Positions 10,709 through 42,600 of a stretch of DNA of 64,000 nucleotides are shown one piece after another (the stretch's first letter is position 1; each line of letters opens with the position of its first letter). The DNA comes from Escherichia coli (GTDB taxonomy: Bacteria > Pseudomonadota > Gammaproteobacteria > Enterobacterales > Enterobacteriaceae), in NCBI RefSeq assembly GCF_024700885.2, contig NZ_CP117016.1, one strand, 5' to 3'. The translations under genes and the position numbers were made by a program. A model generated the notes under the pieces. It was not told where the DNA came from and did not search any database. It was given only the letters and a program-made list of their open reading frames with translations.

Positions 10709-11419
10709 TTAATCTCCTGTACGGATAAGTTCTTGTCGGAGTGAATAAGTTCCGGGAGGTAAATTACGTTCTACAATCACGCGCGGGCCAAGTTGCGTGT
10801 TCGGGGAAATAATTCGCCCAGGCAAAATAATAACTTGTACGCCAAGGCGTGAACGCTGCCCGATATAACAACCTAATTTATCGCATTCGGTAGCGATAAT
10901 TCCCTCTGGAGTTCGAACAGACACGGGCTGTTGATCCAGACGATGATTACTGGTACGTACTTGTGCGCCCAAATATGCCTGGTTTGCAACTACCGAGTCG
11001 GCGATAAAGCATTGCGGACCAATCGTTGCTTCCGCTTCAATAACCGCATTTTTAATTTCGGTGGCAAAACCAATTTTTACGCCATTGCTGATTATTGTGC
11101 CAGGACGAATAAACGCATAATTACCTATCAGGCAGTTTGCGCCAATCACTACCGGACCCTGAATAACGGCACCGTGACAAATACGGGTATTCGCGCCGAT
11201 AACAACTTCACCTGCAGTTTCATCAATAATTACCTGGTCTGCAATCTGAATATTTTTCTCTTTAACATTAAGCTTCAGAAAGTTTTTCAGTTCCTGTGAC
11301 AGAAGATTGGGAATAAGCGGTTGACGCTTCCACCAGTGCGGAATAGCGGGTGGGTTTGTCGCGCTGAGGTTCGCGTCCAGTAAAAAAGGCAATAAGTCCA
11401 TAAATAATCCAGATGGCAT
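10709..11419 (-). CDS. yaiX: hexapeptide-repeat (left-handed beta-helix) acyl/acetyltransferase; true start probably downstream of 11419
   Basis: Repeated [LIV]-G-x-x-x-x-I hexapeptide pattern; the maximal ORF overlaps the yaiP 3' end by about 150 nt, so a shorter start is likely; uninterrupted here. Confidence 0.65.
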   Translation of the reverse strand: MPSGLFMDLLPFLLDANLSATNPPAIPHWWKRQPLIPNLLSQELKNFLKLNVKEKNIQIADQVIIDETAGEVVIGANTRICHGAVIQGPVVIGANCLIGNYAFIRPGTIISNGVKIGFATEIKNAVIEAEATIGPQCFIADSVVANQAYLGAQVRTSNHRLDQQPVSVRTPEGIIATECDKLGCYIGQRSRLGVQVIILPGRIISPNTQLGPRVIVERNLPPGTYSLRQELIRTGD

Positions 11420-32997: not shown

Positions 32998-33456
32998 ATG
33001 ACAATTTGGGTGGATGCCGACGCGTGTCCCAATGTAATTAAAGAGATTTTGTATCGCGCGGCGGAACGTATGCAGATGCCGCTGGTACTGGTAGCAAACC
33101 AGAGTTTACGCGTGCCGCCATCGCGATTTATTCGTACGCTGCGCGTCGCGGCAGGTTTCGACGTTGCCGATAACGAAATTGTCCGGCAGTGTGAAGCGGG
33201 CGATTTGGTGATCACCGCAGATATTCCTTTGGCTGCTGAAGCCATCGAGAAAGGCGCGGCGGCGCTTAATCCTCGCGGCGAACGTTATACGCCAGCGACC
33301 ATTCGTGAGCGCCTGACGATGCGCGATTTTATGGATACCTTACGTGCCAGTGGGATCCAGACCGGAGGACCAGATAGTCTTTCACAACGTGACCGCCAGG
33401 CCTTTGCCGCGGAGCTGGATAAGTGGTGGCTGGAAGTGCAACGTAGTCGTGGCTAA
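32998..33456 (+). CDS. yaiI: UPF0178/DUF188 protein
   Basis: ORF 32878..33456 trimmed to [12 protein letters not shown] (152 aa). Confidence 0.8.
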
Positions 33457-33600
33457 ATGTAATTTATTATTTACACTTCATTCTTGAATATTTATTGGTA
33501 TAGTAAGGAGTGTATTGAGATTTTCACTTTAAGTGGAATTTTTTCTTTACAATCGAAATTGTACTAGTTTGATGGTATGATCGCTATTCTCATGATACCG
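33456..33600 (+). promoter_or_regulatory. aroL promoter with TyrR boxes and a TrpR-type operator half-site
   Basis: tgtaatttattatttaca and tggaattttttctttaca fit TGTAAA-N6-TTTACA; gtactagtt matches the Trp-repressor operator core. Confidence 0.65.
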
Positions 33601-33638
33601 GCTTTCGCCGCATTGCGACCTATTGGGGAAAACCCACG

Positions 33639-34163
33639 ATGACACAACCTCTTTTTCTGATCGGGCCTCGGGGCTGTGGTAAAACAACGGTCGGAATGGC
33701 CCTTGCCGATTCGCTTAACCGTCGATTTGTCGATACCGACCAGTGGTTGCAATCACAGCTCAATATGACGGTCGCGGAGATCGTCGAAAGGGAAGAGTGG
33801 GCGGGATTCCGCGCCAGAGAAACGGCGGCGCTGGAAGCGGTAACTGCGCCATCCACCGTTATCGCTACAGGCGGCGGCATTATCCTGACGGAATTTAATC
33901 GTCACTTTATGCAAAATAACGGGATCGTGGTTTATTTGTGTGCGCCAGTATCAGTCCTGGTTAACCGACTGCAAGCTGCACCGGAAGAAGATTTACGGCC
34001 AACCTTAACGGGGAAACCGCTGAGCGAAGAAGTTCAGGAAGTGCTGGAAGAACGCGATGCGCTTTATCGCGAAGTTGCGCATATTATCATCGACGCAACA
34101 AACGAACCCAGCCAGGTGATTTCTGAAATTCGCAGTGCCCTGGCACAGACGATCAATTGTTGA
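33639..34163 (+). CDS. aroL: shikimate kinase II
   Basis: 174-aa ORF; P-loop GPRGCGKTT. Confidence 0.93.
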
Positions 34164-34203
34164 TTTTCGAGCGCCTATACTTAACGTTCATCCCGTGAAA
34201 TAA

Positions 34204-34404
<201 letters not shown>

Positions 34405-34661
34405 CCGCATCAGACTGCTCGGAAGGGATTCTGAGTGCCACCACAAGGGATCTGCGTCACATTTTTCACAATTCATGTTTTTCAAATAATTAGAATATTA
34501 AACAATAACAATCCATTACTGGAATCATTTGGAATCTTTACATTATGCCGTGTAGGTCTGCTGCTACGCTTTTTGTCATTTGTAGCACAGGTAAGTGTCA
34601 GCAGTGGTGCTTAGCGCTTGCCCGGTAATTAACGACGAAATAAAAGTAAGGTGGAAGAACA

Positions 34662-35339
34662 ATGAGTGCGTCGTTGGCGATCCTGACCATCGGCATTGTA
34701 CCTATGCAGGAAGTTTTGCCGCTCCTGACAGAATACATTGACGAAGATAATATTTCCCATCATAGCCTGCTGGGGAAGTTAAGCCGCGAAGAAGTGATGG
34801 CGGAGTACGCGCCAGAAGCAGGCGAAGACACAATTCTCACATTATTAAATGACAACCATCTGGCCCATGTTTCGCGTCGCAAAGTAGAGCGTGACCTGCA
34901 AGGTGTGGTTGAAGTGCTCGATAATCAGGGCTACGACGTCATTATATTAATGAGTACGGCAAACATTAGTAGTATGACTGCGCGTAATACGATCTTTCTT
35001 GAGCCGTCGCGGATATTGCCACCGCTGGTTTCCTCTATTGTTGAAGATCATCAGGTAGGGGTTATCGTACCGGTTGAGGAGTTGCTGACCGTTCAGGCGC
35101 AAAAATGGCAAATTTTGCAGAAACCGCCGGTATTTTCATTGGGTAACCCCATTCATGATTCAGAACAAAAAATCATTGATGCCGGGAAAGAATTACTGGC
35201 GAAAGGCGCAGATGTCATCATGCTGGATTGTTTGGGATTTAACCAGCGTCATCGCGATTTACTGCAAAAACAGCTCGATGTTCCTGTCTTGCTGTCTAAC
35301 GTATTGATTGCACGGCTGGCTGCGGAATTACTGGTGTAA
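34662..35339 (+). CDS. aroM: AroM family protein
   Basis: 225-aa ORF; aroL-yaiA-aroM order. Confidence 0.85.
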
Positions 35340-39699: not shown

Positions 39700-42600
39700 T
39701 TATTTCACTGCAAACGCACTTTCCAGTTTGCTGTAGCCCAGGCCGTTGATCTTCTTCACTTTGATCTGCACCGGAATACGCTCTTTCATCGCTTCAACGT
39801 GGCTAATCACACCGATGGTTTTGCCACTGGCATTCAGGGCATCCAGCGCATCAAGGGCGGTATCCAGCGTTTCGCTATCCAGCGTGCCAAAACCTTCATC
39901 GAGGAACAGCGAATCAATACGCGTTTTATGGCTGACCAGATCTGAAAGCGCCAGTGCCAGCGCCAGACTGACGAGGAAACTCTCGCCACCGGAAAGGGTA
40001 CGGGTATCGCGTACCGCATCTGCCTGCCAGGTATCAACAACCTCGACTTCCAGCGCCTCGCTGGCTTTGCGCTGTAACAGATAGCGCCCGTGCAGCCGGG
40101 TAAGTTGCTGATTAGCGAGATGGACTAAATTATCCAGCGTCAGTCCCTGGGCAAACTTGCGGAATTTATCGCCCTCTTTGGAACCTATTAGCGAATTCAG
40201 ATATCCCCAGTCCTCAACCTGCTGCGTCATTTGAGCAATTTGCTGCATTAAGGTTTGTTGTTGCTGACGGTTGTCTGCATCCTGCTTCAGCTGCTGGCGA
40301 ATCTCGCCCTGACTGGTGGTGTTTTCACGCAACTTTTGGTGAGTTTGCGCTAACTCTTGCTGAATCTGCTCCACCGTTACAGTGAGAGCCAACCCGTCAG
40401 GTCGGTGTTGCTGATGCTGTGCCAGCGTTTCTGCTGTCTGAGTGACCAGTGTTTGCACCTGACGGCGCTGGTTTTCCAGATTCTGCTTGAGCTGTTCCAG
40501 TTGCGTTAGTGTTTGTTCATCCATTAGCGCCGCAAGGAACGCCTGCTGATCGTCAAAGATGCTGGCCTGTAGCGCGGTGTCAAACTGCGCCTGGGCTTTT
40601 TGCAGACTTTGCGCCGCCAGAACGTCCTGTTGCTGTAACGTCTGCTGCTGGCTGTGTAATGCGAGACATTGTTCATGAACCTGCCGCCAGTTTTCCAGTA
40701 CCACAGTTTCTTCGCTGTGCGGGAGTTCATCACTTTGCGGCAACGTTTCCAGAATCGGCGTCAGCTGCTGCATACGGTTTTGCAGCGCGGTTAATTCGTT
40801 CTGGCGTTGCTGCCACCTCTGCGCTTCTTGCTGACGTGTCGCCAACCAGCTCTCTTCTTCATCTTCCTGTGGCAATGTCAGTGCATAACCCGCCAATGCC
40901 GTTAAGAGTTGCTGCTGGCGTTGTTCAATTTGCTGTTGATACTGAATAATTTGCTGATTATGCGCGGCAATCTGCCCTTGTAATTCATGCCGTTGGCTGA
41001 GTAACCGCAGCTGGCGTTCGTGCTCATCTTGTGCATCCAGCCACGGTTGAATATCGTCCTGTGGCTGCAAGGTGATATTGAGGCTGGCCGTGACGGCTTG
41101 CCATTGTTGAGTAAGTGCTTGCTCATCTTGTCGGAGGCTTTGCGCTTCGTTTTCATCACGCTGAAGTTGCTTTGTTAAGGCGTCCAGTTGCCCACGTAGC
41201 GTCGCACCTTCTTCACCGAGCTTTTTAACTTCGTTTTCCAGCGCCAGTAATCGAGACTGATTAACGCCAGGCTCCAGCGCCTGATACGCCTCGACCGCCG
41301 GGTGGCTGGTGGAACCACAAAGAGGACAAGGCTGACCCGCCTGTAACTGTGCACGCTGGGCTTCCAGCGTTTTGATGCGCGCTTCCTGCTCGCAAATGGT
41401 TTTCACATCGGCAAGTTGCTGCGTCTTTTCTTTATAACGCTGGCGCATTTCGTTAAGTGCGGCGTTACGTTGCGTCTGTTCTTGCGTGACATTCTGGATA
41501 GTGACCTGTAATTGCGCCAGGCGTTTTTGTTGGGGAACAATCTGTCCATGCAGCGCGACCAGGCGCTGACGCAGCGTGCGTTGCTCAGCATGTTGCGCCA
41601 GGGCGGTAGCAACTTCATCGGCGGTTAACGTCAACGTGATCGCCGCAAGCGCATTAAGTTTTTGCTCAGCATGGGTTAACTGTTGCTGCCATTGCCGCAG
41701 ATGCTCGCGATCGCTGGTTTGTTGGGAGAACTGCGCACGCCAACCCGCCAGTTCGTTGTTCCACTGACGGAAGCGGTCGTGTTCCTGTAACCAGGCATTC
41801 AGGCTTTGTTGCTGCTGCTGTAATTCTGCAGACTGCTTCGCCGCGTGGTGGCGAATGCTCGCCCGAAGCGCCATTGTGCTCTGTAAGCGAGTATTTACTT
41901 CTTCAATCTGCTGGCGAGTATGCGCCAGCGCCGCGCTGTGTTCTGCGATGCGTTCCCAGTGTGGACGAAGATTTCGTGCCGGTTGTGCCAGACTGAGCGC
42001 CGCCAGTTGAGGTTGCGCTTTTTCTTCTTCGGCTAACGCCTGTTGCAAGGCCTGTTGACGGCGGCTGGCTTCTTGCTGCAATTCGTCCAGACGCGTTAAC
42101 CAGTTTAGTGATTGTTGTTCTTGCTGCTGCGCGGTAAGTAACTGTTTTTCTTCGTCAGTAAGTACCTGCAAACTCGCTGTCAGCGATTGCACTTGTTCTG
42201 GCGTGAGCAACGCGACGCCGCTGGCCTGCGCTTGCAGCTTCTCCAGCTCTGTGCGGGCCGATTTGTGCTGCTCAAAAACCATCGCCGAGATTTGCCCGTA
42301 GATTTCAGTGCCGGTTAACTCCTCGAGCAATTCCGCGCGTTCTTTTGGTTTGGCATTCAGGAAGGCAGCAAATTGCCCCTGCGAAAGCAGCATCGAACGG
42401 GTGAAGCGCCCGTAATCCAGTCCGGTTAACGTCGCCGTCAGTTCCAGCTTATCTTTCACTTTGTCGGCGAGAATTTTGCCGTCGGCGCAGCGCGCCAGCT
42501 CTACGCGTGGCACCTGCAAATTACCGTCGGGCTGGTTACGCGCCCGATTCTGGCTCCAGAACGCGCGATACGCTTCACCTTTGACTTCAAACTCCACTTC

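Follow-up and report, generated by a model that had tools for sequence, protein, structure and literature searches.

The aroL control region of a non-K-12 Escherichia coli: the known TyrR and TrpR sites and a possible second promoter beneath the Trp operator

The short spacer upstream of aroL raises two questions: whether the promoter-operator known from E. coli K-12 is preserved in this strain, and what a Trp-repressor operator might be doing well downstream of the main transcription start. The first can be answered with confidence. Identity with K-12, matching regulatory sites and a P1 transcription start lying between TyrR box 3 and boxes 2 and 1 together indicate that positions 33457–33638 of the window (the whole 64-kb stretch of DNA that was analysed) are, with a probability of about 0.93, the already known, characterised promoter-operator of the aroL-yaiA-aroM transcription unit. 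The second question leads to a tentative proposal, namely that the operator may chiefly serve a weaker promoter, P2, that lies under it.

The locus and its identity with K-12

Positions 33457–33638 constitute the yaiI–aroL intergenic region of E. coli, a spacer of 182 bp with 34% GC. The TAA stop codon of yaiI occupies 33454–33456 (last base 33456) and the ATG start codon of aroL 33639–33641.

33639..34163, plus strand: aroL coding sequence, shikimate kinase II, 174 aa (assigned from the ORF, the RefSeq annotation under the matches and homologues named AroL)

Annotation under perfect (100%) matches in E. coli genomes identifies the locus as aroL. A 301-nt stretch surrounding the control region is present in 5,425 of 5,426 complete genomes and matches strains 1190, elppa4 and others at 100%. 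In order, the local genes are adrA, proC (minus strand), yaiI, aroL, yaiA, aroM and ppnP, which from proC to ppnP is the same as in MG1655. The yaiI stop codon, the aroL ATG, the annotation and the gene order thus all bear out the preliminary description, which had placed an aroL control region at 33456–33640.

The window is from a non-K-12 strain. Over 206 nt of the aroL control region it differs from K-12 MG1655 by only two SNPs, A for G at 33509 and T for C at 33596. Both fall outside the box arms, the operator and the −10 elements: the former is at −3 of the P1 start, 2 nt before box 2, and the latter is in the 5′ UTR. The three TyrR boxes, the TrpR site and the P1 start are all the same as at K-12 aroL, and no functional difference between the two regions is expected. 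The K-12 promoter-operator itself has reportedly been studied by DeFeyter et al. in 1986, Heatwole and Somerville in 1992, and Lawley and Pittard in 1994. Among the sampled E. coli variants, SNPs likewise sit in the N6 spacers or outside the motifs, those at 33517, 33519 and 33544 being within the N6 spacers of TyrR boxes. One strain, 18AR0366 (L048, 1680–2500), carries an IS1A between the P1 −10 element and box 2, flanked by a 9-bp target duplication, TAGTAAGGG. As a result, box 3 and the P1 −10 lie about 0.8 kb farther upstream, and what remains in front of aroL is box 2, box 1 and the TrpR/P2 block.

TyrR boxes around the main promoter

TyrR sites were sought with the consensus TGTAAA-N6-TTTACA. 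Their numbering, 1 to 3, follows the scheme attributed to Lawley and Pittard (1994).

33458..33475, unstranded: TyrR box 3 (strong), TGTAATTTATTATTTACA, 11/12 (1 mismatch), G-N14-C kept
33496..33504, plus strand: P1 extended −10, TGgTATAGT, with TG at 33496–97 and TATAGT at 33499–504
33511..33512, plus strand: P1 start (known aroLp), from four public data sets, giving a 127-nt 5′ UTR
33511..33528, unstranded: TyrR box 2 (weak), TGTATTGAGATTTTCACT, 8/12, G-N14-C kept
33534..33551, unstranded: TyrR box 1 (strong), TGGAATTTTTTCTTTACA, 10/12 (2 mismatches)

By the definition in PMC4374768, a strong TyrR box has 10 or more of 12 matches and a weak one fewer than 10; the boxes have an invariant G and C 14 bp apart, and a weak box is expected beside a strong one. 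All three boxes keep the G at position 2 and the C at position 17, and the weak box 2 adjoins the strong box 1, as weak boxes require. The two good matches announced in the preliminary description were therefore real, at 33458–75 (11/12) and 33534–51 (10/12). Its count of two holds for the strong boxes but falls short of the published arrangement, which has three; the weak box at 33511–28 had been missed. An alternative register for box 2, 33509–26, also scores 8/12. It was rejected because 33511–28 has the 23-bp spacing to box 1 and is the register given in the PMC2760140 supplement (GGTGTATTGAGATTTTCACT). The RegulonDB-matrix scan in that supplement lists the aroL TyrR sites as AATGTAATTTATTATTTACA, GGTGTATTGAGATTTTCACT and AGTGGAATTTTTTCTTTACA, and its aroL sites are exactly these three TyrR boxes plus the TrpR site.

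The boxes are arranged around P1, whose start sits between box 3 and boxes 2 and 1. The centre of box 3 is at −45.5 relative to this start, that of box 2 (33519.5) at +8.5 and that of box 1 (33542.5) at +31.5, the last two being 23 bp apart. P1 has no conserved −35 element, but its TG and TATAGT are invariant in our alignment, where only the middle "n" varies; the −10 of the known aroLp is given as "GGTATAGT" in the PMC2760140 supplement. Both P1 and the candidate promoter P2 discussed below have the features of sigma-70 extended −10 promoters, that is, TGn followed by a TATAAT-like hexamer with a start 5–9 nt downstream. The P1 start was placed at 405502 (U00096.2) by Kim 2012, with 136 reads and a 127-nt UTR, and at −127 by Mendoza-Vargas 2009 (PMC2760140 supplement), where it is labelled "known aroLp". 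Cappable-seq likewise gives 405502 (RRS 4.7), and SMRT-Cappable-seq gives 406277 (U00096.3), assigned to an aroL-yaiA-aroM operon.

This architecture is conserved among close relatives. A scan of species-representative genomes with AroL yielded 25 enterobacterial loci (6 Escherichia, 18 Citrobacter and 1 Winslowiella). Both strong boxes are present in 24 of them, 74–76 bp apart, and CTAG is found at −74/−75 from the ATG in 23. The box arms are invariant in the alignment while their N6 spacers vary, a pattern seen for box 3 across 22 aligned Escherichia and Citrobacter sequences and also for box 1; the block TCTTGnTATAGTA is invariant too. Box 2 is conserved within Escherichia only and is degenerate in Citrobacter and Salmonella. 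Further loci, in Salmonella, Intestinirhabdus, Kosakonia and Enterobacter, were reached via AroL homologues:

Salmonella enterica: whole architecture kept, box 1 being a 12/12 match
Intestinirhabdus: whole architecture kept
Kosakonia: box 1 and the operator block kept, P1 −10 missing
Enterobacter cloacae complex: one box only, CTAG absent

Box 3 is thus also found in Salmonella and Intestinirhabdus, and with these two included the spacing between box 3 and box 1 is 74–77 bp in every locus that has both boxes. Outside the Escherichia/Citrobacter/Salmonella group the architecture differs. Like the Enterobacter cloacae complex, Winslowiella has a single box and no CTAG. This pattern fits the distribution described in PMC5343134, where control of aroLM by TyrR does not extend beyond Enterobacteriales and control by TrpR is limited to a few close relatives. 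As to individual arrangements, the lone box of the Enterobacter cloacae complex, TGCAATCATTTCTTTACA, lies at −55 with no TrpR site accompanying it, and in K. pneumoniae the mapped aroL TSS is 3 nt after a similar box, TGCAATGATAAGTTTACA (Kim 2012). In Kosakonia, the stretch separating the two boxes contains a hairpin with a T-run after it. Overall, identity with K-12 at all motif positions, conservation and the RegulonDB-matrix listing uphold the earlier statement that the regulatory architecture of aroL is preserved.

How would such an arrangement work? The motifs, positions, statistics, conservation, transcription starts and K-12 identity were observed here, and binding, looping and regulation are drawn from the K-12 literature. 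P1, with its extended −10 (TGgTATAGT) and a start at 33512, is the main promoter. Box 3 lies just upstream of a would-be −35, and on the other side the start is followed by box 2, which is weak, and box 1, which is strong. TyrR carrying tyrosine and ATP would assemble into a hexamer contacting the upstream and downstream boxes together, so that the promoter core would be looped out and repressed. Tryptophan-bound TrpR at 33561–78, beside box 1, may add modest extra repression. Lawley and Pittard are said to have described three TyrR boxes in 1994, of which 1 and 3 were essential whereas 2 could be dispensed with, together with looping by a TyrR hexamer, a TrpR site adjoining box 1 and cooperation between TrpR and TyrR. 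Hexamer-mediated repression of aroLM is also the view of PMC10170061.

The Trp-repressor operator and a candidate second promoter

33561..33578, unstranded: Trp-repressor operator, GTACTAGTTTGATGGTAT, with a consensus left half-site and a degenerate right half
33553..33558, plus strand: P2 −35-like hexamer, TCGAAA (TTGGCG or TTAACG in Citrobacter, only T33553 being invariant)
33573..33581, plus strand: P2 extended −10, TGgTATGAT, overlapping the right half of the TrpR operator
33586..33589, plus strand: P2 start(s), from three public TSS data sets, 50–53 nt before the aroL ATG, giving a roughly 50-nt 5′ UTR

The sequence gtactagtt, in which the preliminary description had recognised a Trp-repressor operator core, is indeed present at 33561–69, but as a TrpR site it amounts to one good half plus a degenerate half. 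The left half-site, GTACTAGTT, matches perfectly, whereas CTAG is missing from the right one, TGATGGTAT. The site as a whole matches the trp-operator palindrome GTACTAGTTAACTAGTAC, which has a CTAG core in each half, at 13 of 18 positions, and the full 18-bp palindrome has no match in the window at three or fewer mismatches. The RegulonDB-matrix scan gives the aroL TrpR site as AATTGTACTAGTTTGATGGTATGA and scores it at 16.32, compared with 19.3 for mtr and 20–21 for trp (PMC2760140 supplement), although there is some circularity in this score, as the aroL site was probably among those used to build the matrix. According to the same supplement, natural TrpR operators vary in sequence. Dual control of aroL by TyrR and TrpR, regarded as established in the preliminary description, is stated in PMC5343134 and agrees with the matching RegulonDB-matrix sites.

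The position of the operator is another matter. It is centred at +58.5 from P1 and spans +50 to +67 of that promoter, which is an unusual place for the Trp repressor; other known TrpR operators overlap core promoter elements. Relative to P2 the same site is centred at −19.5 and overlaps the −10. A refinement compatible with the main explanation is that the TrpR operator is mainly a classical operator of a weaker promoter P2 (TCGAAA-17-TGgTATGAT), whose −10 would be occluded by TrpR. We give this nearly even odds. Just as likely, in our estimate a shade under one in two, is its corollary that the tryptophan effect reportedly needs TyrR since the output of P2 is visible only with P1 repressed.

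Transcription start data argue for P2. The 2009 data contain a "New" TSS at −53, which as a single read also counts among the points against (PMC2760140 supplement). Cappable-seq has a start at 405579 (window 33589) in an M9 glucose culture, with an RRS of 7.35, higher than that of P1, and a triphosphate enrichment of 3.9, and SMRT-Cappable-seq one at 406353 (window 33587) with full-length capped aroL-yaiA transcripts. The start thus appears in three independent data sets; against this, Kim 2012 lists the P1 start alone. Condition dependence is also in line with a second promoter: aroL is found in three transcript contexts in M9 medium versus one in rich medium. A consensus promoter scan reported a single promoter, TCGAAA-17-tgTATGAT at 33553–81, and the same −35/−10 pair had been proposed in the PMC2760140 supplement. 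Although its start is visible in three sets of public TSS data, P2 has, as far as we could find, not been discussed in the literature, and in the papers searched for "aroLp2" or a similar name only "aroLp" occurred.

Conservation points the same way. The operator lies in the best-conserved block of the spacer, TGTACTAGTTTGrTGrTATGAT, and across five genera no other part of the spacer is as well conserved as the 21-nt operator/−10 block. Within the P2 −10, T33573, G33574 and TAT-AT are invariant, and the one free position, 33575 (G in 21, A in 7), is G15, the would-be G of the operator's second CTAG core. Conservation extends 3 nt beyond the 18-mer on the right, whereas the mirror-image left flank (33557–60) varies. 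Two natural variants are informative: C. sedlakii has lost GTACTAG but kept TGGTATGAT, and thereby the P2 −10, and Kosakonia keeps the operator/P2 block without a P1 −10. These patterns have to be read with some caution. The proposed link between TrpR and P2 is drawn from sequence, and contacts with TrpR could still be what keeps the right half conserved; in addition, the anchored alignment forces part of the −10 invariance, though an unanchored alignment shows the same columns.

In 1994, Lawley and Pittard reportedly inserted 4 bp between box 1 and the TrpR site, whereupon repression by tyrosine increased and the effect of tryptophan was lost, the outcome that destruction of P2 would have. 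Box 1 at −46.5 from P2 mirrors box 3 at −45.5 from P1. We considered a tandem duplication of the box 3–P1 and box 1–P2 units and rejected it, since similarity outside the boxes was no better than in shuffles (P = 0.31). In its fullest form, the proposal gives aroL two extended −10 promoters in tandem, separated by 77 bp and both equipped with a strong TyrR box centred near −46, and makes the TrpR "site at +58" the classical operator of P2. This complete picture is possible, but we hold it to be somewhat less probable than the refinement on its own.

The opposite reading is that the TrpR-like site is vestigial or negligible and that aroL is in practice under TyrR alone. A 2025 preprint argues for it with single-cell CRISPRi and reporter data, concluding that "tyrR alone regulates aroL": tyrR knock-down raised aroL expression and trpR knock-down had no detectable effect, a result that equally tells against a TrpR-controlled P2. 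The single consensus half-site, the absence of the TrpR site from Enterobacter, Winslowiella and C. sedlakii, and the restriction of the TrpR–aroL link to a few close relatives (PMC5343134) point in the same direction. What makes this reading unlikely is the 21-nt block, whose conservation across five genera argues for selection. Earlier aroL studies are also said to include TrpR footprinting and in vivo effects. The lack of a detectable trpR effect in the preprint suggests to us that the TrpR input is weak or condition-dependent. The known dual arrangement is the preferred reading.

Chance resemblance in an AT-rich spacer could be invoked as well. Across the whole window, TyrR-like sites with up to three mismatches show no excess (28 found versus 26 expected), and GTACTAGT occurs once (33561–68) against 0.5 expected, which is not significant by itself. 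However, two boxes with at least 10/12 matches arise within 182 bp in just 0.02–0.03% of spacer shuffles (P about 3e-4), and with arms conserved around variable spacers across genera, in a region identical to the one studied experimentally in K-12, a chance origin of the motifs is refuted to near certainty. Sites with at least 10/12 matches number four in the window, two of them in the aroL spacer; the other two, both 10/12, are at 10758–10775 and 41882–41899 inside long ORFs (236 and 1047 aa) and are probably chance matches.

Leader RNA, neighbouring transcription and comparison with other promoters

33605..33618, plus strand: small 4-bp GC hairpin in the 5′ UTR, UCGC/GCGA with a 6-nt loop (RNAalifold consensus, weak evidence)
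33625..33629, plus strand: Shine-Dalgarno-like GGGGA, 9 nt before the ATG, in a GGGGAA block conserved in the alignments

A single pair of the predicted hairpin covaries, being U-A in 4 Escherichia but C-G in 12 others. Another stem is predicted at 33624–33636 (UGGG/CCCA) and would cover the Shine-Dalgarno sequence; Citrobacter keeps it only via G-U pairs. No Rfam RNA family was detected in 33300–34700 at E ≤ 1. A potential IHF site has been mentioned for aroL, but a search of 33440–33640 for WATCAANNNNTTR gave no match with one mismatch or fewer.

In the aroL–yaiA spacer, Cappable-seq places a TSS at 406178 (U00096.2; window 34188), 25 nt upstream of yaiA, with an RRS of 719, about 100 times that of the aroL starts; Kim 2012 lists starts at 406178 and 406145. 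yaiA therefore has a strong promoter of its own inside the "aroL-yaiA-aroM operon". Upstream, SMRT-Cappable-seq shows capped transcripts from the yaiI promoter (405741 in U00096.3, window 32975) running into aroL-yaiA and as far as b0392. We found no terminator after yaiI, and the aroL control region is therefore also transcribed from upstream. A minor antisense TSS on the minus strand at window 33550 (405540 in U00096.2, 4 reads), inside box 1, was assigned to proC by Kim 2012.

How does aroL compare with other promoters of the two regulons? The E. coli mtr promoter is the other one co-regulated by TyrR and TrpR, and it likewise has TyrR boxes and a TrpR operator (TTGTACTCGTGTACTGGTACAGTG, matrix score 19.3). 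The regulatory logic differs: TyrR is an activator at mtr, where the dominant repressor is TrpR, whereas at aroL TyrR represses and dominates. With the trpEDCBA operator aroL shares GTACTAGTT and, if P2 is real, the overlap with a −10 element. The trp operator, however, is a near-perfect palindrome with two CTAG cores (20–21), while that of aroL has one CTAG and matches at 13/18. Strong and weak boxes and tyrosine-dependent repression by the hexamer are features that aroL has in common with aroF-tyrA and other multi-box TyrR-repressed promoters. In those promoters the boxes are clustered over the −35/−10 region; at aroL one box lies upstream of +1 and two lie downstream, so that they flank the promoter core on both sides.

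For this strain, then, the outcome is a textbook regulatory region confirmed intact. Beyond that, TSS data combined with phylogenetic footprinting suggest that a second, conserved promoter of aroL lies beneath the TrpR operator, a point of modest specialist value. P2, if true, would align aroL with other TrpR operators and offer a simpler reading of the "TyrR-TrpR synergism" of the 1990s, explaining it without a TyrR–TrpR protein contact. With P2 visible only when P1 is shut and destroyed by the insertion, the tandem-promoter arrangement would also account for the dependence of the tryptophan effect on tyrR+ and for the effect of the 4-bp insertion. In strain engineering for aromatics, deleting TyrR control alone may leave a TrpR-controlled P2 in place.
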